From: Candidatus Heimdallarchaeota archaeon
GTDB taxonomy: Archaea; Asgardarchaeota; Heimdallarchaeia; Hodarchaeales; Hodarchaeaceae
NCBI GenBank assembly: GCA_048881705.1
Contig: JBHLSH010000097.1
Coordinates: forward strand, 1 to 11,197
Direction of reading: 5' to 3'
Length of the DNA: 11,197 nt
How positions within the stretch are numbered: the first letter of the stretch is position 1; the number at the start of each line of letters is the position of its first letter. The notes beneath the pieces were generated by a model. It was given only the letters and a program-made list of their open reading frames with translations, was not told the origin of the DNA and made no database searches. Below are positions 94 through 11,027 of this stretch, piece by piece. The position numbers and the translations under genes are program-made.

Positions 94-1311
94 ATGAAAC
101 GCTGGCAATCTATTATTATTCCGATCTTCTCAGTTTTGGTTATGGCACATATTCTATGGGACGGACAACATTTCCTTCTGCCCATTGAACGGGAGGTTTT
201 GGTTAGAACCAATTTCAAGAGTCCTACTGCTCCTAATGTCCCTGATCAGATCTATACTCAACATGACCGTATCAATATCGTCGGTGACAAGGATCTGAAA
301 AATTCGTTTCCAGGTGGGGGGACGTTAAGTGACCCTATTCGGATTGAAGGATTCAACATCACTGCAGCGGCTGAGGATTTGATTTCCATTAGTGGAACTT
401 CGTCCTATTTCCGCATCGCAAATAACCTACTTAACGGGGATAATGGGTTGGGGAATGGGATTTCTCTCTATAATGTGACGAACGGAGAAATTTATAACAA
501 TGTTATCTTTGGTAATAACCAAAACGGAATAAAACTATACGTTTCAAACAACAACAGCGTTCATAACAACATTCTCTATAAAAATGGTTTTGCTGAAATA
601 AATTTAGCCCGTTCTAATAACAATAATATCTCCGAAAACACGGTTTCAAAAAACACATTTGCAGCGGGAATTTATCTTGTCAAGGATAATTCAAACAACG
701 TTATCTCGAATAACACACTCTTTAATAACGGCGTTGGAATCAGATTCGAGTCAGAAGCAAATAGAAACGAAGTGATCCAGAATGACTTGTATGAGAATAG
801 AGTAGGAATCCATCTAGAGTTTGTTAGGGATATTTCAGTTAAACAGAATAGGATTAGAGACAACCTCGCAGGAATAAAAGTTACAAGCGGGGATGGATTT
901 AGGTTTTCACGAAACATTACTGTATCTAGAAATCTGATTTATCATAATCAGGGATATGGTATGATTTTGGAACGGTTTTCCAAAGATATCAGGATTTCAA
1001 GTAACGATTTTATTAAAAATAACCAGAACAAGAACTCTCAAGCATTTGATGGCGGGGAGAATAATACATTTGCCTATAATTACTGGGATGAATGGACGGA
1101 TCCCGATTATAATAAGGATGGCTTTGTAGATTTTCCTTACAATATTGACGGATCAACAAATAATCAGGATGGTTTTTCTTGGGCTTCCCCTCCATCTTAT
1201 AATACTGAGATACCCCTAGAACACACAATGGCCGCTTTAATTCTCTTGATTTTGATTCTTGGCGCGCTAGGATTCTCGATTCTTCAACAACAATATCGGT
1301 CATATGGGTAG
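94..1311 (+). CDS. NosD-like right-handed parallel beta-helix surface protein with N-terminal hydrophobic leader and C-terminal TM anchor
   Basis: 405 aa. About 8 tandem 22-29 aa Asn-rich repeats of the type GIxLxxxxNxxIxxNxxxxN. N-terminal motif HDRINI...GGGTLSDPIRIEG and C-terminal YNYWDEWTDPDYNKDGFVDFPYNIDG (DxNxDG-like), both typical of archaeal beta-helix proteins. Hydrophobic N-terminus and C-terminal helix ALILLILILGALGFSIL. Confidence 0.85.
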   Translation: MKRWQSIIIPIFSVLVMAHILWDGQHFLLPIEREVLVRTNFKSPTAPNVPDQIYTQHDRINIVGDKDLKNSFPGGGTLSDPIRIEGFNITAAAEDLISISGTSSYFRIANNLLNGDNGLGNGISLYNVTNGEIYNNVIFGNNQNGIKLYVSNNNSVHNNILYKNGFAEINLARSNNNNISENTVSKNTFAAGIYLVKDNSNNVISNNTLFNNGVGIRFESEANRNEVIQNDLYENRVGIHLEFVRDISVKQNRIRDNLAGIKVTSGDGFRFSRNITVSRNLIYHNQGYGMILERFSKDIRISSNDFIKNNQNKNSQAFDGGENNTFAYNYWDEWTDPDYNKDGFVDFPYNIDGSTNNQDGFSWASPPSYNTEIPLEHTMAALILLILILGALGFSILQQQYRSYG

Positions 1312-1337
1312 GACCGAGTAATACTAAAGGATCTTTA

Positions 1338-1421
1338 ATGTACAAACGTCAAGGGCTATCCCCAGTGTTTGTCATCGAGATGCCGGAGGATAAACGGCTG
1401 GAGAGGGACGCTGCATTCTGA
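1338..1421 (+). CDS. putative 27-aa small protein MYKRQGLSPVFVIEMPEDKRLERDAAF (repeat family A, copy 1)
   Basis: ATG at 1338, TGA at 1419-1421, below the ORF-track cutoff. 16 of the last 22 residues match the frame in the copy at 4895..4970, and 8 of those 16 use different synonymous codons. Confidence 0.45.
   Translation: MYKRQGLSPVFVIEMPEDKRLERDAAF
1347..1421 (+). repeat. dispersed repeat family A, copy 1
   Basis: cgtcaagggcta-tccccagtgtttgtcatcgagatgccggaggataaacggctggagagggacgctgcattctga aligns to 4895..4970 at 56/76 columns with one gap. Confidence 0.9.
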
Positions 1422-1606
1422 GATGACCTAATACGTCTTCAGATTGATTCTTGGTTGGTTCGAGCTTTACAGCTTCTTACAATGACTGGATAATTCATTT
1501 AAACTTAAGGAAACGAAAATTATTTTGCTAGGCACGAATTCTACGATGATCACATGTCAATGATTAAAGGGGATCGTCTACCCATCTTGACAAAACCAAT
1601 TTTGGG

Positions 1607-1906
1607 ATGAAAACCGTGTCAAATGAAAATAAAAACACCATTAGCATTTTTGTTCAACTTGAGGCCCCAGATTTTGATACTTGGTACCACGAGCACGATA
1701 TACATGCCGATCATCGTAAGAACTATGGGATCATAGATGGACCAGTCTATCGAGATATTAGCAACCCAAATTCAGCCTTGGTGCATCTCATGACTGATGA
1801 CCTTCCTAAAGCAAAAGAATGGTTTGGAACGGATTTATTTAAAGCTGGGACCAAGAGAGCCAAGGTATCGAGTAGGAAAATTTATATGGCTGAGAATCGT
1901 AAGTAA
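1607..1906 (+). CDS. small dimeric alpha/beta-barrel (ABM-like) hypothetical protein
   Basis: 99 aa. The pattern FVQLEAPDFDTW...GI...VYRDISNPNSALVHL..DD..KAKEWF resembles the small 'DFDxW...RDxxDPN...A..F' barrel proteins. Family assigned by motif recognition only. Confidence 0.65.
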   Translation: MKTVSNENKNTISIFVQLEAPDFDTWYHEHDIHADHRKNYGIIDGPVYRDISNPNSALVHLMTDDLPKAKEWFGTDLFKAGTKRAKVSSRKIYMAENRK

Positions 1907-2119
1907 TGGAAAACAGCCCCAGATAATAATCAGGATAGGTTTGTAGACCTTCCTTACCCCATTGATGGTATAGCAAACAATCAAGATTTTTCTGCTCGGA
2001 CTTCGTCCATGCAAGCTTCCGCTAGGGGCCTCCCAGACCAGATCCAAATCGCCTTGATTTTTCTGGTCTTGATTCTAGGTACCCTTGGCGTCTCAGTCTG
2101 GAAACAAAGACAAAGATGA
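1907..2119 (+). pseudogene. 5'-truncated remnant: diverged copy of the C-terminal ~70 codons of the beta-helix gene (94..1311)
   Basis: Translates WKTAPDNNQDRFVDLPYPIDGIANNQDF...IALIFLVLILGTLGVSVWKQRQR*. Identity to ORF 94..1311 is 17/25 over TDPD...NNQD and 11/15 over the TM helix. No start codon before the conserved block. Confidence 0.88.
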
Positions 2120-2178
2120 CACAACAAGGCGATAGAGATAATCTGAATTAATTTCTCATCAATCGTGAACTTTTAAAC

Positions 2179-2198
2179 CCTGATTTAAAACAATCAGG
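2179..2198. other. perfect 7-bp inverted repeat (CCTGATT-taaaac-AATCAGG)
   Basis: Seen directly, 9 nt upstream of repeat A copy 2. Function unknown. Confidence 0.5.
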
Positions 2199-2207
2199 CC
2201 ATAACAA

Positions 2208-2250
2208 CGTCAAAGGCTTGTCTTTGGTGTTTTTTATCCGGAGGTCGGAA
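2208..2250 (+). repeat. dispersed repeat family A, copy 2 (5' part only)
   Basis: First 15 nt (CGTCAAAGGCTTGTC) identical to the copy at 4895; 34/43 overall; similarity is lost after ...tcggaa. Reads VKGLSLVFFIRRSE. Confidence 0.8.
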
Positions 2251-2335
2251 AGAATTGATAACCTAAAGTTTTAAACCATAAATGCCTTTATCGTGGTATT
2301 GGAAGAACATCAAGAAATCCGTAGGATAGCGCACA

Positions 2336-3511
2336 TTGCCAATATTTACATCTGAAGTAACCTGGGCTGTCGTGATACGATTAGCAGTCTTGGTAGGCGA
2401 ACTTGCGCTAATCTACGTTGTCATAAGGAAATACTTGAGGTCAGACTATTCTCGGATTTTAATCATTTTACTCATAGCGTTAATTGCCAATCTTGTTTCC
2501 AATGGGTTGAGTTTCAGCGCCATATTTATTCCAGAACCGGATCGAGATTTATTCCATAATATCAGGACCTTGGATTTTCTAAGCACTATTCTCTCGCTTT
2601 ATTTTTTTCTCCTCATCTTTGAATTTTTTGAATATGAAACCTTACTCACTCAAGGACAGCTGATTGGAACTGTATTAACAACTGTTACAACTATCTTCAT
2701 CGTTTATACAATACCTCAAGCAAACTGGCTAATCAATGAACAAATGTACTTCCAAAGCCTCGATTCCCCTATCCTGGTTTTCTTAAACCTATTCGGTAGT
2801 ATATTAGGGGCTTTTGTGATAACGACTCTGCGTAGAGGTCTGAAGGACGTCTGGATTACTCAGAGAGAGCAAATAATTTCAATGATTGCAAGTGTTTGTA
2901 TAATATCGTTCATTCCTTTCCTGTTTTCATTATTACTACTCTTTTTCAGTGATCAAGTATTCCTAATTGCAGAACCATTATCAAGAGGAGCAATACTGGC
3001 AGGTTATATCATTTTAACAATTTCTTTTGGTGGAACAAATCATTACAGCCAATACAATCGACGAAAAGCAGATAAGGTTCTTGTGACAAACCTGAGCGGG
3101 ATCCCACTCTTTCATTACGATTTTAAAGAAAATGTTCATTACATAAATGAAACGCTATTTTCTGGAGCTGTAGTTGCAATTACAATGCTAATGTCAGAAT
3201 CCATTAAGTCTCCATCCCCTATTGCTGAGGTATTAATGAAAAACAAATATCGGTTGATGCTCGAAACACGGGAATCCTTTATTGCCTTGATCCTAACACC
3301 ACAAGCTAATCCCTACCTTAGAAATTCTATAGAACGATTTGCTCGAGCTTTCGATCAAAAGTTCACTTCCATTATAACGTCAGGGGAGGTCCTAGACCTT
3401 AATCTTTTTGTCAAATCAGGACTTGGGCTATTGTTTGAAAATTTCGGAATATCCACGGTTAAAGTTAAGAGAATGGCAGCAATATTAACATTTGAAGAAA
3501 CAATAACGTAA
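2336..3511 (+). CDS. 7-TM membrane protein with C-terminal longin-like cytoplasmic domain
   Basis: 391 aa, TTG start. Seven hydrophobic segments in the first ~235 aa. The soluble tail KVLVTNLSGIPLFHYDF...ETLFSGAVVAITMLMSE...IAEV...LMLE...FIALI...LRNSIERFARAFDQKF matches the longin-like pattern common in Asgard proteins. Confidence 0.72.
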   Translation: MPIFTSEVTWAVVIRLAVLVGELALIYVVIRKYLRSDYSRILIILLIALIANLVSNGLSFSAIFIPEPDRDLFHNIRTLDFLSTILSLYFFLLIFEFFEYETLLTQGQLIGTVLTTVTTIFIVYTIPQANWLINEQMYFQSLDSPILVFLNLFGSILGAFVITTLRRGLKDVWITQREQIISMIASVCIISFIPFLFSLLLLFFSDQVFLIAEPLSRGAILAGYIILTISFGGTNHYSQYNRRKADKVLVTNLSGIPLFHYDFKENVHYINETLFSGAVVAITMLMSESIKSPSPIAEVLMKNKYRLMLETRESFIALILTPQANPYLRNSIERFARAFDQKFTSIITSGEVLDLNLFVKSGLGLLFENFGISTVKVKRMAAILTFEETIT

Positions 3512-3579
3512 AATTGCGTGTCGTGGTATTTAGCAGGAATATGATTCGAACTTATTTCAGAGTAAACGGATCGAGTCAG

Positions 3580-4422
3580 ATGAAACAGATTAACTCAAAT
3601 ATCATGTATGGTACTGCCTGGAAAGAAGAAAAAACTGAACTATTAACCTTAAATGCACTGATGGCAGGATTTAACTCGATTGATACTGCTAATCAACGTA
3701 AACACTACAATGAAGAAGGGGTAGGAAACGCCATACGTGCTTTTATAAAAGCGAAAGGAATAGACCGAGACGAATTATTTATTCAAACGAAATTTACTTA
3801 CAAAGAAGGACAAGATCACCGTTTACCGTTTGATCCTGAAGCAAAGCCAACGACTCAAGTAAATCAATCGTTTAATAGTTCATTAGAACATCTACAGATC
3901 GATTACATTGACTCATACGTGTTACATGGGCCCTCAGCACGTTTTGGAATATCTGCCCTTGATTGGGAGGTCTGGACAACAATGGAAAAATTGATCTCGG
4001 AAGGAAGGGTTAACCATTTGGGTATAAGTAATGTGAATCCTGAACAGCTGGAGATTTTATGTGAAAAGGTAGAGATCAAACCGTCATTTGTCCAGAATCG
4101 CTGTTTTGCGAGACTTGGATGGGATAAGGAAATCAGGGAGATATGCAAAAAGAATAATGTCACTTATCAAGGATTCTCATTGTTAACCGCTAACAGAGAG
4201 GTCCTGACCCATCCCAGAGTACTACAGATGAGTAAAACAATGAATAGAACAATTCCTCAAATAATTTTTAGTTTCGCTCGGCTTATTGGCATTTTACCGT
4301 TAACAGGAACAACAAATCGAAAACATATGGAAGAAGACCTCGAAAGCGTGAATATAATGCTTACAAAAGAACAAATAGACTACCTTACGAATATTTCAAT
4401 TGGCAGATCCCTGGATTATTGA
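3580..4422 (+). CDS. aldo/keto reductase
   Basis: Motifs YGTAWK, GFNSIDTA..KHYNE, LFIQTKFT, SLEHLQIDYIDSYVLHGP, LGISNV, VQN and IPQI..LPLTGTT..HMEEDL. ATG 3580 is preferred over the track's TTG 3514 because homology begins there. Confidence 0.92.
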   Translation: MKQINSNIMYGTAWKEEKTELLTLNALMAGFNSIDTANQRKHYNEEGVGNAIRAFIKAKGIDRDELFIQTKFTYKEGQDHRLPFDPEAKPTTQVNQSFNSSLEHLQIDYIDSYVLHGPSARFGISALDWEVWTTMEKLISEGRVNHLGISNVNPEQLEILCEKVEIKPSFVQNRCFARLGWDKEIREICKKNNVTYQGFSLLTANREVLTHPRVLQMSKTMNRTIPQIIFSFARLIGILPLTGTTNRKHMEEDLESVNIMLTKEQIDYLTNISIGRSLDY

Positions 4423-4451
4423 AAATACCCTTTTTTCCTGGAACTTCGTTA

Positions 4452-4727
4452 TTAGAGATAACGTACATCAAAGACATGTTTTCTGGCTTTCCCATCTGGA
4501 TTTTGGAAGATAAACACCTGGAAAGGGATACGCATTCTAAAAACGCCATGCGATTCACTTGAATATAAACCTTGTAAGATGGGTACTGAAATAAACAGAC
4601 CAGAAATTAGTGAGGAGAGAATGAAAAGAATCCATCCTCTCTTAGTCAAATCCTCTGATTCGGCAATTTCTCTTAACACACCGCTTTGAAAAGTAAAAGT
4701 TCCTACAACTTGAGACAAGAAACTCAT
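4452..4727 (-). pseudogene. truncated Yip1-like membrane protein fragment
   Basis: N-terminus MSFLSQVVGTFTFQSGVLREIAESEDLTKRGWILFILSSLISG resembles the start of prokaryotic Yip1-domain proteins, but only one TM follows. The last ~29 codons largely read through the antisense of repeat A copy 3. Confidence 0.45.
4466..4540 (+). repeat. dispersed repeat family A, copy 3 (1-nt deletion near the 3' end)
   Basis: catcaaagacatgttttctggctttcccatctggattttggaagataaacacctggaaagggatac-gcattctaa gives 52/76 vs 4895..4970, and 29/37 vs copy 1 over the 3' half. Reads IKDMFSGFPIWILEDKHLERD[fs]AF*, ending in TAA where the other copies have TGA. Confidence 0.85.
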
Positions 4728-4894
4728 AAGAAAAACCTCGGTAAAGTACTTGGATTTCTTTACATGTTAGGTTACCATTTAGTCTTGATATTCCCTCATT
4801 TGGATTATTTAAGTTTTTTCATTATTTGATGTAATTAAATCGACAATTACGAAAATATTGTTCGCTATTTTCCAAACTAATTACCAAGCACGAC

Positions 4895-4970
4895 CGTCAA
4901 AGGCTTGTCCTCGGTCTTTTCGATCCAGATTTCAGAAGATCAACGACTGGAGCGCGACGCGGCGTTCTGA
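4895..4970 (+). repeat. dispersed repeat family A, copy 4
   Basis: cgtcaaaggcttgtcctcggtcttttcgatccagatttcagaagatcaacgactggagcgcgacgcggcgttctga reads VKGLSSVFSIQISEDQRLERDAAF*. In-frame TAA upstream at 4878-4880 and no ATG. Confidence 0.9.
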
Positions 4971-5211
4971 TGGAGAAGCGAGATGATATCCAAGGAACCA
5001 GATGATGGGAAATAAAACCGTCATGGCCTTGCTGGGCTATTAAAACGATTGATCAAAGCGAATTAGGTCCCCAATCCTAGATAAGAAAAAAAAGCGTTTT
5101 CATGACGATGATGATCTTCTGTTTTATATCCTGCTCCCCAAAAAAACGTTACACTCTCCGTTTTTCGATTTCTGCAGTAAAGATTTCTTATAAGAACGAA
5201 TTTCCCATGAG

Positions 5212-5628
5212 TTGAAAGATTTTATAGGAGATTTATTATTGGATTCTGACATTCACAAAAAAATTAAGGCGAAATTAACAATTTTTGTTGACGCTATGCG
5301 GACTAAAGATGTCGAAACCATGGTCAGCGTATTTGACGAAGATTCAATTGTGCTCGGAGGCACAAGTCAATCACCAATTGAAGCTCATGGTCACGATGAA
5401 ATAAAACAAGTAATGAGTCTTTTCATCAAGAATTTAATTGATGGAGATATATTTTCAAGCCATATTTTTCAGATAGGGGATGAAATTTACGAAATGGGAA
5501 CGAATCGTATGGTTGTTGAAAATGAAGGCCAACAAAGAGAGGTAAAAGGAAATTATGTGACCGTTTGGAAACAAAATGAAGGAGACTGGTTTGTCAAAAA
5601 AGATATGCTACCTCCTATGCCAGAGTAA
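5212..5628 (+). CDS. SnoaL/NTF2-like (DUF4440-type) protein
   Basis: 138 aa, TTG start (uncertain). Pattern FVDAMRTKDVETMVSVFDEDSIVL...GHDEIK...IYEMG...KGNYVTVWKQNEGDWFV. Confidence 0.8.
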   Translation: MKDFIGDLLLDSDIHKKIKAKLTIFVDAMRTKDVETMVSVFDEDSIVLGGTSQSPIEAHGHDEIKQVMSLFIKNLIDGDIFSSHIFQIGDEIYEMGTNRMVVENEGQQREVKGNYVTVWKQNEGDWFVKKDMLPPMPE

Positions 5629-5820
5629 GCATGATCTCTAAAACATTAACATTTTTCCGAAATAGGCCGGTTCCATTAATATTGATTCACATTAAGAACA
5701 CTAAACTATCCTTTTATCTATAGAGTATAACAAAACCTGAAAACCCCCCTAAATTATAAGACCCGAAATACTCATCTCTTACAATAGATAGACAACTCCA
5801 CAACGCATGTAGTGATTTAA

Positions 5821-7332
5821 ATGTCAACACTAAGCGATCTGTATAGAGAATTAGTTGAACAAACTAGTGAAAAACTCATCCTGCAGCAAATCAATTCAAT
5901 TTTGGCATGGGATCAACATACATATATGCCCCCCAAAGGTGTAATTCAACGCGCTAAGCAAAAAGCATTATTAGCTTCGTTGATACACAAAAGGCGAACA
6001 GATCCTAAAATAGGAAAGTTACTTCAAGCTTTACAAACCCATTCCGAAATCTCAACTTTAACCGAGGTTGAGAGAAGAAATATTGAGATTATCGATCGGG
6101 AATACCGTAGATATTCGAAAGTTCCAAGCGAATTAGCTGTCAAAATTGCCCAACAATCGCCTATTTCTATTCAAGCATGGGAAAACGCAAGACGAGAGAA
6201 AGAATATTCAATTCTAAAACCTGAAATGGATAAAATGTTAGAACTCGTAAAAGAAAGATGTCATTATATAAATTCTGATTTAAAGCCCATTGATGTTATA
6301 ATTGATGAATATGAACCAGGAGTCACAGCTGATTACTTATCCAGCCTTTTTACAACTTTAAAAGCAGGACTTATCCAACTACTAGAAAGAATTCATAGTT
6401 CACCGATCAAACCTGATCTTTCAATAGTCAACCGAGAGTGTACTTTAGAAATTCAAACAGAATTATCACACGCTGTTGCAAACGTAGTTCAGTACGATCT
6501 CGAAAGAGGACGAATAGACACTTCAGCCCATCCTTTTACGAATGGTTTATGGGACGATGTACGTATAACGACGAGATATGATCCTAATGACTTTTCTGAT
6601 TCTTTTTTCGCGGTAATGCACGAATCTGGGCATGCCTTATATAATCAAAATTTGAATAAGGGGTTGAAATATCAACAAGTGGGCTTACCGTGTTCTGGTG
6701 GGGTTCATGAATCACAGTCACGATTTATTGAAAACATAATTGGTCGAAGTCGAGAGTTCTGGCAGTATTATTTTCCTATATTCCAAATGCTGACCAAAGG
6801 AATATATGATGACGTAACTCTGGAAGAATTTGTTTTAGCCATAAATGAGGTTAAACCATCAAAAATCCGAGTTAAAGCCGATGAAGTAACATATTCATTA
6901 CATGTTATACTTCGATTTGAGATAGAAAGAGATCTTCTTGAAGGGAAAATTTCAACAGTTGATCTCCCAGATATATGGAATGCCAAATACAAAGAATACC
7001 TTGGAATCGATTTTGAAGATGATTCTGAAGGTGTAATGCAAGATATTCATTGGCCTGCAGGAGGATTTGGTGCTTTCTATTCTTACGCGCTTGGAAATAT
7101 GTACAGTGCACAGATTTTACACACAATGAAAAAACAAATTCCTAACTATAAAGAGATTATAGAAAAGGGAGATATAAAAACACCGATCGATTGGTTGAGC
7201 GAATATGTGCATCAAAAATCGAATTTGTATGATCCTCTTACGCTGATAGAACAAATCACAGGAGAACCGCTTGATCCCAAGTATTACCTCCAATATTTGG
7301 ATGAAAAATACACCGACTTATACCAATTATAG
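5821..7332 (+). CDS. M32 family metallocarboxypeptidase
   Basis: 503 aa. WDQ.TYMP, HPF, DVRITTRY, HESGH (HEXXH), HESQS, IRVKADEVTYSLH..RFEIE and QDIHW motifs. Confidence 0.96.
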   Translation: MSTLSDLYRELVEQTSEKLILQQINSILAWDQHTYMPPKGVIQRAKQKALLASLIHKRRTDPKIGKLLQALQTHSEISTLTEVERRNIEIIDREYRRYSKVPSELAVKIAQQSPISIQAWENARREKEYSILKPEMDKMLELVKERCHYINSDLKPIDVIIDEYEPGVTADYLSSLFTTLKAGLIQLLERIHSSPIKPDLSIVNRECTLEIQTELSHAVANVVQYDLERGRIDTSAHPFTNGLWDDVRITTRYDPNDFSDSFFAVMHESGHALYNQNLNKGLKYQQVGLPCSGGVHESQSRFIENIIGRSREFWQYYFPIFQMLTKGIYDDVTLEEFVLAINEVKPSKIRVKADEVTYSLHVILRFEIERDLLEGKISTVDLPDIWNAKYKEYLGIDFEDDSEGVMQDIHWPAGGFGAFYSYALGNMYSAQILHTMKKQIPNYKEIIEKGDIKTPIDWLSEYVHQKSNLYDPLTLIEQITGEPLDPKYYLQYLDEKYTDLYQL

Positions 7333-7465
7333 AAGTGAACTGGATGTCCCTCCGTTTAAATGATTTTGTGATTGATCTGTGTCGTTTTTCCTGGTCCTTT
7401 AGGAAGATCGGGTTATTATCTCAGATGCAAACAGAACATTGGTTCAACCTGATTTCAAAACGGAC

Positions 7466-7497
7466 AAGGAAATCGGGCAAATCATTTCGATAACCCC
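7466..7497. repeat. dispersed repeat family B, copy 1
   Basis: AAGGAAATCGGGCAAATCATTTCGATAACCCC, 28/32 identical to 10907..10938. Confidence 0.85.
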
Positions 7498-7568
7498 TTG
7501 ATCGTCATTTGCGCTCTAGTCCCTTCGAAATTCGTTTTCGAATACGAAATCGCTGATACAGTTCCAAC

Positions 7569-8498
7569 TTAAGACTGAAAGTCTTCAGGATTTATCCCGC
7601 AGGTAACCTCTTGATTTTCAATTTGATATGCGTATGCCATACGAGGGGTATTAAACGCCAACCCAATTCCAGAAGAGGTTAACACAATTATCCCGCCCAA
7701 TCCGTTTACTTTAATATCCAAATCACGGATTGTCTGACTAGCTGCCTTTTGGGTTGAGGAGCCCGCTTTGATATATTGGATGCATGTATTTGTAGCCAAT
7801 ATTCGGATTAAATCTTCACCGTACCCTGTTGCTGCAGCTCCTCCAATATTTTTTTCCACGTATGCGCCGGAACCCCATAAAGGAGTATCTCCAACACGAC
7901 CTGCGCGTTTATATGGAGTACCTCCAGTCGAGAGGGCCACGCAGAAACTACCGGTTTGATCGAAACAGACACATCCTACCGTTCCGTGACCCTCTGGTTT
8001 GCCTTGTCTCCTAAAGGCATCTTTAGATCGATAAACCTGTTTCTCCCTTATTTCATGGTATCTCTCCAACTCTCGACCAATCAAAAGATCTTGGGGTTGT
8101 ACTTCAGGAAATCCCATTTCCCGAGCAAAAAGGTTAGCTCCTTTCCCTACTAACATGATATGATCAGTTTTTTCCATAACGAGGCGAGCAACCTGAACAG
8201 GGTTATTGATATTCTGAATTGCTGCGACAGAGCCAATTTTATATTCATCTGTTGCGATTATGGCATCCATTTCCACTTCAGCAATTTGATTGACAAATGA
8301 GCCCATGCCTGCGTCAAAAATGGGATTTTTTTCCATAAGTGTGATAGCATGTTCGGCCGCATTGAGAGCCGTTCCCTCGCTGTCCTCCAAAATTTCACTT
8401 GCTTCAAGGCATGCTTTTCTCACTCCTTTTAAATGCTCTTCTACCAGATTATCTGGAATATTCCACGCACCTCCGTGAACTATTACGCCATATCTCAT
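7569..8498 (-). CDS. iaaA: isoaspartyl peptidase / plant-type L-asparaginase (Ntn hydrolase)
   Basis: 309 aa. IVHGGA, FDAG.GS, EMDA, INNPV..AR.VMEKTDH, autocleavage site G|TVG, STGG, GRVGDTP and TGYGE motifs. Confidence 0.95.
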   Translation of the reverse strand: MRYGVIVHGGAWNIPDNLVEEHLKGVRKACLEASEILEDSEGTALNAAEHAITLMEKNPIFDAGMGSFVNQIAEVEMDAIIATDEYKIGSVAAIQNINNPVQVARLVMEKTDHIMLVGKGANLFAREMGFPEVQPQDLLIGRELERYHEIREKQVYRSKDAFRRQGKPEGHGTVGCVCFDQTGSFCVALSTGGTPYKRAGRVGDTPLWGSGAYVEKNIGGAAATGYGEDLIRILATNTCIQYIKAGSSTQKAASQTIRDLDIKVNGLGGIIVLTSSGIGLAFNTPRMAYAYQIENQEVTCGINPEDFQS

Positions 8499-8678
8499 TC
8501 AATCACACCATATTGACCTAATGAATTTTCAAATTTGACGTTCCTTCTGGAATTGGCCTTCTATGGTTCTCAGCCCTTGACTGTTTTTAGAAAACGGAGG
8601 AAGGCCTCGGGATTCTTTCCCTGAAACTCGGATATCGAAAATTGGGAAAGGAGGGATCACAAGATGGGAACCCCTTAG

Positions 8679-8717
8679 TTAGATTTCCGTAAAGCTGTCA
8701 ACTGTCTGGTAATCCAA
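8679..8717 (-). pseudogene. 13-codon remnant: diverged copy of the 3' end of the M42 peptidase gene
   Basis: Reads LDYQTVDSFTEI* against LDQETVDKFTEI* at 9662..9700: 9/12 aa and 30/39 nt, with three synonymous third-position changes (F, T, E). Starts 11 nt after the methyltransferase stop. Confidence 0.8.
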
Positions 8718-8728
8718 TCATTCGTTGC

Positions 8729-9421
8729 TTATTTCTGACATAAATATGCAGTATAATGGCTAAGTACATTTGTGCGGCCTCTGGATCGAACATCATGTCT
8801 GTTGAAATCAAAATACTCGATAATTTCCAAACCGCATTCTTTGAGGGAGGGGATTAGCTCAAATTTTGCAAATTCAATGGATAATAGGTAGCCTCCGTCA
8901 GAAAGGCTGTTCACAATATTCTCAATAGCTCGGAGTAGATTTTCTTGTTCTGCTCTCTTTTTTCCTTGCTTTCCTTTTTTTATATTAATGAAAATTCTCT
9001 GGCAAAAAGCTAAACCAATATCTCTTGGCAAATTGCTTCCTGTAACAATATCACCCCGAATGAAACTTGGAAGACGATTATCAGCCATCAATTGACACAA
9101 ATCGATTGCCGTTTTTTCTCCTATCCTGAGTTTATTCATCAAGTTATTTGAGCAATAATTGCATAAATGGTTTTCTAATTTTCGAATTTCATCCAAGGAA
9201 TATTGAAAATCTCCAGAAAATTTATCTAATTCAATGCAAATCGATTTATCTAATTCTAATGAGAGCGCAAAAGTAGTAATCCCAGAGCCGCACCCAAAAT
9301 CACAAATTCTTATCTTTTCAGGTTTCAATCCAAATCTTTGCATTATCTTTCTTATATCTTCACGAATTAGATGCGTATATTTGATGTACTTACGAATCCT
9401 TATATCAGGTCCAGAGTTCAT
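8729..9421 (-). CDS. class I SAM-dependent methyltransferase
   Basis: 230 aa. Motif I ICDFGCGSG, acidic residue after beta2 (CIELD), RGD, and a late LSDGGYLLSIE motif. Substrate not inferable. Confidence 0.8.
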   Translation of the reverse strand: MNSGPDIRIRKYIKYTHLIREDIRKIMQRFGLKPEKIRICDFGCGSGITTFALSLELDKSICIELDKFSGDFQYSLDEIRKLENHLCNYCSNNLMNKLRIGEKTAIDLCQLMADNRLPSFIRGDIVTGSNLPRDIGLAFCQRIFINIKKGKQGKKRAEQENLLRAIENIVNSLSDGGYLLSIEFAKFELIPSLKECGLEIIEYFDFNRHDVRSRGRTNVLSHYTAYLCQK

Positions 9422-9661
9422 TGGATTACTCTACATTCCTCTCTAGGCTTTTGCCAAACATCAAATTATGAGAACATGGAATAGTTTCTTTATCAATTAA
9501 GAGGATTCCTATGCATCGCTAGGTACCACGCTTTACAAAGATCCTTGCATGGAATTTCGAATTTCTGCCTTCTTCAGTAGAATGCCCGTAGACAATAAAT
9601 ATGAGAAAGGGTCAGCCTTCTGATAGGAAAGCAAAAATCAGTTGATTGTAAGCCCCTAAAT

Positions 9662-10786
9662 TTAGATCTCTGTGAACTTGTCAACTGTTTCTTGATCCAA
9701 CCTTTTTAGAATTTCAATTATTAGAATAATTGCCTTATTAACGTCAGCTAAATCTAAGATTCCATTGTGAGAATGAATATGGCGTGTCGGAACTCCCAAA
9801 ACTATGGATGGACAACCAGAGCCCGTTATGTGAATTACTCCTGCATCAGTGCCTCCACCCATCACGACTGAGGCTTGATAATCAATTCCTATTTCTTTGG
9901 CAACATCAATCACAAAATGACGAAATCGAGGATTTGGAATCATCGTGGCGTCTCCTGCAAGTATCGATACTCCTTTTGACATCTCCGCGGGAGCTTTCAG
10001 TTTTTCGACCCCCGGGACATCACTCGAAATGTCCACTTCTAAGGCAATTCCTATATCGGGATTTATCGTTTGAGCTGCTGTTCGTGCGCCTCGTAATCCT
10101 ATTTCTTCCTGGACGGTTGCGACCCCAAAAATCTGATTCGGGTGTGAAATATTCCCTTCCTTAATGCTTCTTATTACTTCCGCTGCGATAAATGCTCCGA
10201 TTCTGTCATCAAATGCTTTTCCAACAGCCAGAGTTGCTTTTCTCTCTTTTTCTTTTCCGTTGTCATCTTTCTCAATCTGAATTCGTTCCAATAATTCAAA
10301 TTTTGAATCAGGCGTAATTGGATCACCTATTTGAATTCCCAGATTCTCGATTTCCTTTTTGCTTTTGCAACCTACATCGATGAACATTTTATCTTTTGTC
10401 AAAACTTTTTTCCTCACTTCAGGATCAAGAACATGGGGAGGAGGGGCAGTAATTATTCCACGGTAGGTTTTCCCGTTTCTATTTCGAACTAACACCCTTT
10501 GAGTGAGCAAGGATTGATCCCACCATCCTCCTATTTGGTGAAAGGTCAAGTATCCCAGATCATTTATCCCCGTGACCATCATTCCGATTTCATCTATATG
10601 GCCTGCAAGCATAATTTTTGGACCGATGCTCCCAATTTTGAAAATCAAGGAACCTGTTTTATCTTTGAACACTTCATCGGAAAATGTGCTTACATATTCC
10701 TTAATAATTCTTGATACTTCAATTTCATGCCCTGAAGGGCCAAATGCGTTGCTCAACTTCTCTAAAAAAGGTATTTCAATGTCCAT
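9662..10786 (-). CDS. M42 family (TET/FrvX-like) metalloaminopeptidase
   Basis: 374 aa. GPSGHE, MLAGHIDEIG, KAFDDRIG, VQEEIGLRGA, ALEVD, GGTDAG and PTRHIHS metal-ligand motifs. Confidence 0.96.
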   Translation of the reverse strand: MDIEIPFLEKLSNAFGPSGHEIEVSRIIKEYVSTFSDEVFKDKTGSLIFKIGSIGPKIMLAGHIDEIGMMVTGINDLGYLTFHQIGGWWDQSLLTQRVLVRNRNGKTYRGIITAPPPHVLDPEVRKKVLTKDKMFIDVGCKSKKEIENLGIQIGDPITPDSKFELLERIQIEKDDNGKEKERKATLAVGKAFDDRIGAFIAAEVIRSIKEGNISHPNQIFGVATVQEEIGLRGARTAAQTINPDIGIALEVDISSDVPGVEKLKAPAEMSKGVSILAGDATMIPNPRFRHFVIDVAKEIGIDYQASVVMGGGTDAGVIHITGSGCPSIVLGVPTRHIHSHNGILDLADVNKAIILIIEILKRLDQETVDKFTEI

Positions 10787-10906: not shown

Positions 10907-10938
10907 AAGGAAATCGAACAAATCATTTCGATAGCACC
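10907..10938. repeat. dispersed repeat family B, copy 2
   Basis: AAGGAAATCGAACAAATCATTTCGATAGCACC, containing the perfect inverted repeat ATCGAA-N8-TTCGAT (10913..10932) and followed by TTTATA. Confidence 0.85.
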
Positions 10939-11027
10939 TTTATAGCCAATTGTAGAGAAAGAAACCCAGGCCAAAATTCCATAAAGTAATAAATACCACG
11001 ACTGATGATATGTAGGGTGAGCAGATA

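Follow-up and report, generated by a model that had tools for sequence, protein, structure and literature searches.

The window analysed here is the complete 11.2-kb contig JBHLSH010000097.1 (C97) of a metagenome-assembled genome (MAG) of Candidatus Heimdallarchaeota archaeon (GCA_048881705.1, hereafter G000), an assembly of 3.96 Mb in 155 contigs that is 91% complete, with an estimated contamination of 7.5%. In this genome, accessory genes lie between a resident gene and a displaced, diverged copy of the 3' end of that gene. Comparison with a sister species, G001, a separate assembly that was used as the reference for polarising insertions, suggests that at least two of the accessory genes arrived through one crossover with a foreign copy of a gene end, with no integrase in the inserted DNA. 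The first, a methyltransferase gene behind an M42 aminopeptidase gene, is found in the window; the second is a solute-binding-protein gene behind a nitroreductase gene on contig C18. The best-supported model is, in our view, the insertion of a tail-bearing cassette through one reciprocal crossover, with host recombination guided by homology or microhomology as the favoured agent, and we give it a probability of about 0.5.

The window is collinear with G001 at 83-91% nucleotide identity, and three stretches of it (1420-2255, 4497-7568 and 8509-9615) are missing there. The first-pass annotation of this DNA had described two units on opposite strands in which a gene (X) is followed by a passenger gene (Y) and then by a diverged remnant of the 3' end of X that keeps its stop codon and begins 0 or 11 nt after the stop of the passenger. 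Both units were recovered, the remnants matching their genes with E 6e-12 (beta-helix/barrel) and at 33/45 nt (M42/methyltransferase). The second unit has the following features:

7569-8498, minus strand: asparaginase-family gene (Pfam PF01112), by synteny with G001 the native downstream neighbour of M42
8647-8717, minus strand: displaced M42 end, 84% identical to the M42 end and flank of G001 over 77 nt, made up of a foreign left arm (8706-8717), the core (8697-8705), six native codons with the stop (8679-8696) and native flank (8647-8678)
8697-8705 (remnant copy) and 9680-9688 (gene copy), minus strand: crossover core ACAGTTGAC, 9 nt, from a three-way alignment
8706-9679, minus strand: inserted foreign DNA of 974 nt, absent from G001, with a GC content of 0.35 against 0.41 for the genome
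8729-9421, minus strand: class I S-adenosylmethionine (SAM)-dependent methyltransferase-like gene (Y2), 230 aa, with a weak Methyltransf_23 match below the cut-off
9662-9679, with the 3' flank 9616-9661, minus strand: foreign part of M42, the last ~6 codons and the stop, from the drop in identity to G001
9662-10786, minus strand: M42 aminopeptidase gene (X2; Pfam PF05343)

The stop codon of the methyltransferase gene is followed, after 11 nt, by an M42 tail remnant of 13 codons (8717-8679, minus strand) that has kept its own stop. It encodes LDYQTVDSFTEI before the stop, and the end of the gene encodes LDQETVDKFTEI; 9/12 residues are equal, the stops are aligned and the nucleotide similarity extends beyond them. 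In a control with ~3,000 gene tails and 5 kb of flank, all opposite-strand matches, downstream and upstream, remained below 31/45, and the 33/45 match is therefore not due to chance. The synteny comparison that the first-pass annotation had put forward for recognising an empty site gave a clear result: in G001, the M42 gene is joined directly to the sequence that follows the remnant in G000. The methyltransferase gene was absent from the search results in the 21 other genomes of the genus, so that it was found in G000 alone among 22. Four homologues with 37-62% identity were found elsewhere; in the two readable contexts (locus L020 and a 32-kb ENA contig) neither adjoins an M42 gene, and the L020 copy has no tail duplicates and no similarity of its flanks to those of the window copy.

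The two copies of the M42 end differ in how they relate to G001 on either side of the core. The M42 gene matches its G001 counterpart at ~90% over most of its length, but at 75% over the final ~45 nt (from about 9705 downward) and at ~50% beyond. On the left side of the core, the gene has its native sequence (85% identity to G001), while the remnant has just 12 nt of tail-like sequence, unlike either native version. Right of the core, over ~57 nt, the remnant is 86% identical to G001 and the current gene tail 71%. The same is seen in the tail residues, which are DSFTEI in G001 and in the remnant, DSFTQI or ESFTQI in four further congeners, and DKFTEI in the current G000 tail alone. On these alignments, the gene appears to be native on the left and foreign on the right and the remnant foreign on the left and native on the right; as such reciprocal chimeras, they would be the product of a single reciprocal exchange in which the resident end recombined with a diverged version of itself that had come in with the methyltransferase gene. 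The 974-nt insert contains, in order, the replacement M42 end and flank, a 194-nt upstream region, the methyltransferase gene, 11 nt and the 12-nt foreign left arm, and we regard this locus as a probable clean single event of tail-bearing cassette insertion.

The second polarised event, on C18, comprises the nitroreductase gene, the solute-binding-protein gene in the opposite orientation and a 43-codon tail remnant with two in-frame stops; the corresponding site of G001 is again empty. In the gene copy, identity to G001 is 85-96% on the left side of the core GGATGCAAA; to the right of it, the copy can no longer be aligned, its last three codons and stop being new. The remnant matches G001 at 68% on the left, the side with the in-frame stops, and at 85% on the right. 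Decay cannot explain this contrast within the remnant, since the left part, which matches poorly, would have had a shorter time in which to change than the well-matching right part. The paired exchange points of each event coincide within about 10-20 nt (2/2 events) and are located in the last 12-40 nt of the gene, which argues that the incoming DNA carried the gene tail only. The two cores, of 9 nt each, are unrelated sequences. Homology-facilitated illegitimate recombination (HFIR), the route suggested in the first-pass annotation, joins DNA through one homologous and one illegitimate junction. The present cases resemble it in that foreign genes are added beside a homologous anchor, but at M42 and C18, the two events that could be dated, homology in register is seen at each of the two junctions, the distal one joining the foreign tail arm to the native tail, and that suggestion fits poorly. 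The alignments are better accounted for by one crossover with a circular molecule, or by a site-specific exchange, than by HFIR or a double crossover with a long homologous donor.

Is this architecture confined to two loci, or does it recur in the genome? In a survey of G000, ~3,300 long open reading frames (ORFs) were taken as gene proxies; the last and first 80 residues of each protein were compared with the genome, and the last and first 45 nt with 5 kb on each side and strand. Full-length tandem paralogues (about 70 pairs) were removed before orphan tails were counted. Orphan C-terminal tails were found at ~12 loci downstream on the same strand, versus 2 upstream and 1 on the opposite strand, which bears out the genome-wide excess anticipated in the first-pass annotation. 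The stop codon is in register in about 10/12 remnants. The 45-nt test for orphan gene heads returned 0 downstream and 1 upstream, and the 80-residue search added a few more candidates on both sides, at least one of them a paralogue. The genes with orphan tails are the following:

smc
M42 aminopeptidase
beta-helix protein
nitroreductase (C18)
226-aa protein (C25)
aldo-keto reductase (C41)
DUF362 protein (C5)
Arf-like GTPase (C56)
Zn-ribbon membrane protein (C62), with at least six stacked tails
1,291-aa protein (C62)
513-aa protein (C90)
MZB-domain protein (C127), a locus with no counterpart in G001

The cargo between gene and tail consists of 1-4 ordinary genes on either strand, and its scanned members match SBP_bac_5, cyclase, TPR/CN-hydrolase, TPR, ParA-like or MFS families or have no match. 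No integrase, transposase or homing nuclease was found in the cargo scanned with Pfam, the cargo of the C62 array being left out, and no LAGLIDADG, HNH, GIY-YIG or intein domain was found with Pfam and NCBIfam, which cover known families only. In the window itself, no integrase or insertion sequence is visible, as judged from the Pfam matches of the 10 largest ORFs. The 12 target tails have no k-mers in common beyond chance.

Several of these loci could be compared with G001. At C41 and C25, the gene, cargo and remnant are common to both genomes. At C56 (L045 2270-7500), the Arf-like GTPase gene is followed by 4.3 kb with four genes (TPR, two unknown, ParA-like) and a 39-codon remnant (79% aa identity); in G001 (C3, L050), the gene and the orthologous remnant are ~95 nt apart with no cargo between them. 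At C5, the difference is a deletion in G001, because the first 89 nt of the cargo gene remain there and the rest is lost. On C62 (L046 3000-10200), a 193-aa Zn-ribbon membrane-protein gene precedes at least six displaced copies of its last 16-32 codons (ending in SQPEVEQLYTQK and the stop); a like tail array is present in G001 (C31, L072), where the cassettes common to both stand in another order relative to the tails. Thus, the slots between gene and tail are places of continuing gain, loss and reshuffling. Two candidates, one on C4 and the "upstream" tail match of the TPR/CN-hydrolase gene of C41, proved to be tandem paralogues (the second is truncated at the end of its contig) and were not counted.

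On C90 (419-2391, L048), the 513-aa gene is followed, after 174 nt devoid of cargo, by a frameshifted duplicate of its own end, 83 codons long. This gene is 78% identical to G001 at the nucleotide level, versus 93-95% in the flank. It was dropped as a polarisable case, the remnant being 74.5% and the current tail ~78% identical to the G001 tail.

A further series of displaced tails in the window derives from smc. The first-pass annotation had noted that a repeat ("repeat A") terminates at a stop and that the intergenic DNA looks built of stacked gene tails; repeat A is the final 27 codons and stop of smc, its translation (ending in EDKRLERDAAF and the stop) being equal to the end of smc in G001 and G000. 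The gene itself is carried by C23 in G000; in G001, it opens locus L011. The copies in the window and the genes beside them are as follows:

1340-1421, plus strand: smc-tail copy; homology between G000 and G001 stops at ~1420, at its stop codon
2208-2250, plus strand: degenerate smc-tail copy, collinear with C23
3514-4422, plus strand: aldo-keto reductase gene
4466-4540, plus strand: degenerate smc-tail copy with a frameshift, downstream of the aldo-keto reductase gene; homology between G000 and G001 breaks inside it, at 4496
4886-4970, plus strand: well-preserved smc-tail copy (88% aa identity to the smc end) that precedes the SnoaL/M32 segment
5212-5628, plus strand: SnoaL-like protein gene
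5821-7332, plus strand: M32 carboxypeptidase gene

The array occupies at least 5 kb of the window. Outside it, there are four copies on C23 and at least six in the fetched G001 locus (the smc end, four more and one partial). All copies begin at the same base and finish at the stop codon. For nine of them, the consensus fold has -7 kcal/mol and 0 compensatory pairs, that is, there is neither a conserved fold nor an attC-like hairpin.

The segment 4497-7568, with a Yip1-like stump, an smc-tail copy and the SnoaL-like and M32 genes, is missing at the G001 site, where ~950 nt, containing a partial smc tail and an ORF of 157 aa on the minus strand, stand in its place. Its left break falls within a worn smc tail and its right break at the stop codon of the convergent asparaginase gene. 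The stump (4452-4727, minus strand) is a 91-aa ORF with a Yip1-like N-terminus and one transmembrane helix that runs into the antisense of the degenerate smc tail; it is probably a truncated gene inside a cassette.

Another question is whether the first unit, with the beta-helix gene and the barrel ORF, has the same history as the M42 locus. Its features are the following:

94-1311, plus strand: beta-helix/NosD protein gene (X1) with a C-terminal membrane anchor (Pfam PF13229/PF05048)
1426-2250, plus strand: barrel cassette, consisting of 180 nt, the barrel ORF, the beta-helix-paralogue tail, a spacer and a worn smc tail
1607-1906, plus strand: 99-aa barrel ORF (Y1), with no Pfam or NCBIfam match
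2120-2250, plus strand: spacer with a short hairpin (CCTGATT...AATCAGG), then the degenerate smc tail at 2208-2250, from nucleotide alignment

The remnant (1907-2119, plus strand) adjoins the TAA of the barrel ORF in the same frame and comprises 70 codons and a stop, corresponding to beta-helix residues 335-402 at 46% identity; it contains a dockerin-like motif and a transmembrane anchor. The beta-helix gene, which is 88% identical in amino acids to its G001 orthologue and is itself a cassette of the smc-tail array, has a non-chimeric tail: identity to G001 is 85-97% through the stop and 82-88% through the next smc-tail copy, to about 1420. The remnant is 82% identical in nucleotides and 67% in amino acids to the tail of a paralogue on C23, versus 73% and 46% for the neighbouring gene, and 63% in amino acids to a paralogue on C49. 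Together with the spacer and the worn smc tail, it is collinear with C23 2124-2424, the similarity continuing ~95 nt beyond the stop, via the hairpin, to the start of an smc-tail copy. The family has at least 15 paralogues, two of them within the smc array, and it is from such a paralogue, not from the neighbouring gene, that the remnant derives. The ratio of nonsynonymous to synonymous substitution rates (dN/dS) between the remnant and C23 is 0.47 (0.25 between two intact paralogues), which fits a young unconstrained relic. Thus, the proposal of the first-pass annotation that the passenger had come with a foreign allele of the 3' end of X, and that the remnant should be closer than the current tail to the tail of a relative, holds for M42/methyltransferase, with its empty site, chimeric tails and 86% versus 71% identity, and fails for beta-helix/barrel, where the tail is not chimeric and the remnant is that of a paralogue.

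The segment 1420-2255 has no counterpart at the G001 site, where the slot holds an unrelated ~410 nt. The unit that differs runs from the smc-tail stop (~1421) to the next worn smc tail, and the barrel unit is therefore one cassette of the smc array; its anchor would be the smc tail, the beta-helix remnant being a relic inside the cassette. No copy of the barrel ORF was found in 21 congeners (G000 alone among 22 genomes), and a search over 5.8 billion proteins returned only the protein itself. Its structural model (Atlas) has a predicted TM-score (pTM) of 0.79, and the clusters closest to it contain bacterial proteins of ~90 aa (cyclase-family, DUF3764 and ABM); on this basis it is a credible gene, predicted to encode an ABM/"cyclase"-like alpha+beta barrel. 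Read-through of the barrel TAA into the in-frame remnant was rejected: the barrel has no signal sequence, and the dN/dS of the remnant suggests relaxed constraint.

How could such arrangements arise? We propose that accessory genes travel as small cassettes in which 1-4 ordinary genes would be accompanied by a ~40-110-nt diverged copy of the 3' end of one host gene. The cassette, most likely circular, would undergo one reciprocal crossover with the end of the resident gene, in the manner of Campbell-type insertion-duplication. The gene would retain its native body and gain the last codons and stop of the cassette, the cargo would come next, and the resident end would be displaced behind the cargo, fused to the left arm of the cassette. 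Repetition at one gene would give tail stacks such as those behind smc and the Zn-ribbon membrane-protein gene, and recombination from tail to tail would lead to excision, loss and reordering of cassettes. Campbell-type insertion, a single crossover of a circle with a gene fragment as in suicide plasmids, is a laboratory tool and a sporadic event. Its products and the loci described here are alike in having a restored gene, an insert and a 5'-truncated duplicate, and the two copies at M42 and C18 have the reciprocal structure and near-coincident exchange points of a single crossover. No description of such insertion as a recurrent natural form of gene capture with diverged ~100-nt arms was found in the literature. 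We infer a circular intermediate and, as the agent, recombination by the host through homology or microhomology and not a specialised site-specific enzyme; the latter preference is due to the many unrelated ends, the differing cores, the lack of a common motif or fold and the lack of a recombinase with the scanned cargo.

A number of points weigh against this model. Just two events are polarised against the sister genome; C56, C5, C41 and C25 are old or reworked by deletion and are hence mute on origin. At M42, the left arm of 12 nt is not long enough to be called foreign by itself. Neither a circle nor a donor nor a free cassette was found, and the donor tail and junction patterns (DYQTVDKFTEI, and TVDKFTEI with the stop) gave 0 matches in genome and metagenome contig collections. 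Identity between the arms and the resident tail is just ~70-85%, a low value for recombination of the RadA type, and the sharp common ends of the smc-tail repeats on both sides also suit a site-specific enzyme. With 91% completeness and 7.5% contamination, G000 could have a recombinase that was not assembled. The asymmetry of the orphan tails was measured in this one draft genome alone, with genes called by an ORF heuristic.

Among the alternatives, a trans-acting site-specific recombinase survives best, and we consider it rather unlikely. In this scenario, the gene end would serve as attB and the cassette tail as attP, and the enzyme would be of the XerA type or the integrase of an element or virus missing from the assembly. 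The layout matches the attL and attR left by 3'-end integrators that restore their target gene, and the sharp smc-tail boundaries, the low identity of the arms and the exchange at short identical 9-nt cores would all suit it. The incomplete genome does contain one PF00589 (Phage_integrase) match (C16 37593-38849, minus strand; L064 4594-5850), a XerA-type protein (NCBIfam NF040815, 260 bits) of 418 aa, an unusual length due to a ~200-aa N-terminal extension. It scores above the archaeal XerA cut-off and below the integron-integrase cut-offs and is encoded on a contig other than the array; two serine-recombinase matches in G000 are on tiny contigs. However, one recombinase would need many unrelated sites: the ~12 target genes have no common motif beyond chance, the two cores are unrelated, the smc-tail copies have neither hairpin nor covariation, and no integrase was found in or beside any scanned cassette.

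Known integrase-driven systems offer partial parallels. Integrative and conjugative or mobilizable elements (ICEs, IMEs) and integrase-less cis-mobilizable elements (CIMEs) accrete at the 3' end of a gene, for example fda in Streptococcus thermophilus (PMC5704250). As there, elements stand behind an intact gene in tandem stacks, some with cargo only, and direct repeats from the target 3' end flank the units at M42, C18, the smc tails and the C62 tails. CIME accretion, however, depends on one dedicated tyrosine integrase and one att site, whereas here ~12 unrelated ends are used with no integrase found save XerA, each unit comprises 1-4 ordinary genes, and the repeats, 40-110 nt long, are diverged. 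Dehalococcoides ssrA islands are tandem at a single tmRNA target, with ~20-bp repeats and island-encoded serine recombinases (PMC3146451). They share with the present units the bounding by target 3'-end repeats and the differences between close relatives, but the G000 units have many protein-gene targets, longer repeats and no recombinase in the scanned cargo. With their arrayed, small and promoter-poor cassettes, the G000 loci recall integrons and clusters of attC sites lacking integron integrases (CALINs), and their stacks marked by partial target copies recall tycheposon islands (bioRxiv 10.1101/2020.12.28.424599). Unlike in the former, no IntI, attI or folded attC was found and the repeats are the coding end of smc; unlike in the latter, the targets are ends of protein genes, not tRNAs, and there is no element integrase. 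The mobile elements reported to date from Asgard archaea are large, encode an integrase and mostly insert at tRNAs or short motifs (PMC8813620, PMC11529989). Aloposons and the elements known from Atabeyarchaeia were rejected as candidates, being integrators of this tRNA/short-motif type with their own integrases.

Could a whole block of X', Y and remnant' instead have been copied from a related chromosome by double crossover or gene conversion? Donor DNA received by transfer or cell fusion, perhaps after a break in the gene end, would yield the same reciprocal-looking chimeras, and the foreign M42 end is orthologue-like (FTEI and stop). WHO elements at yeast FBA1 follow this logic: arrivals replace the gene 3' end and push the old end downstream, building the same stacks of gene, cargo and old 3' ends, with a homing endonuclease as cargo (PMC7282813). 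The replaced and displaced ends at M42 and C18 are WHO-like; in contrast to WHO, many genes are targeted here and the scanned cargo has no recognised nuclease domain. Block copying is, in our judgement, decidedly unlikely, as the exchange points lie within the same ~10-20 nt of the tail in 2/2 events, though the whole gene would have been open to the left crossover, and as the origin of the arrangement would merely be shifted to the donor.

The first-pass annotation had itself named a mundane alternative, that the remnants are eroded tandem paralogues or local duplications without any capture, which we hold to be very unlikely and plausible for the beta-helix relic only. That relic is the tail of a paralogue in a large family, the genome has its true tandem pairs, and slot deletions do occur, as the 89-nt stub at C5 in G001 demonstrates. 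On the other hand, erosion should leave heads, middles and both sides alike, which is not what the survey found, with its downstream tails and stops mostly in register. Seven relatives have neither an M42 tail remnant nor a full-length second M42 gene behind M42, the empty sites are exact, and a chimeric end of the retained gene is not expected; for M42 and C18, this alternative is refuted. Metagenomic misassembly or strain mixing, to which repeats in a contaminated 155-contig MAG are prone, is extremely improbable, since the tail copies differ by ~25% and are not collapsible, the pattern is also present in the independently assembled G001 and the flanks are collinear with G001 on both sides.

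Tail-bearing cassette insertion thus seems to differ from known systems in four ways: many unrelated targets per genome, small ordinary cargo, the length and divergence of the repeats and no element-encoded enzyme found. In a limited literature search, no paper describing the pattern in archaea was found. We tentatively suggest that Asgard archaea of the Hodarchaeales type may possess a general gene-capture system without a recombinase of its own, in which the last ~100 nt of any gene would be a docking site, cassettes with a worn copy of that site would enter, leave and change order through host recombination, and integron-like arrays would build up behind smc and other genes. Many Asgard genes are of bacterial origin, and their entry routes are poorly known; if the model is true, adding 1-4 ordinary genes at a time behind many different genes, with no enzyme encoded by the element, would let accessory genomes grow by simple means. 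The displaced tail would be a readable scar, usable for finding and dating acquisitions in any assembly, and short ORF-like tails behind genes should be annotated as recombination scars, not as genes.

Two further features of the window were observed. A 46-nt repeat with a palindromic core (GAAATCG..CAAATCATTTCGATA) is present as two copies, 83% identical, at 7466-7511, between convergent gene ends, and at 10907-10952, in the divergent promoter region upstream of M42; no further copies were found in the G000 genome. The remaining gene of the window is the following:

2336-3511, plus strand: membrane protein gene with no Pfam match

Its product of 391 aa is a multi-pass membrane protein with a soluble C-terminal domain and is 87% identical in amino acids to its G001 counterpart; the gene is translationally close-packed with the aldo-keto reductase gene.

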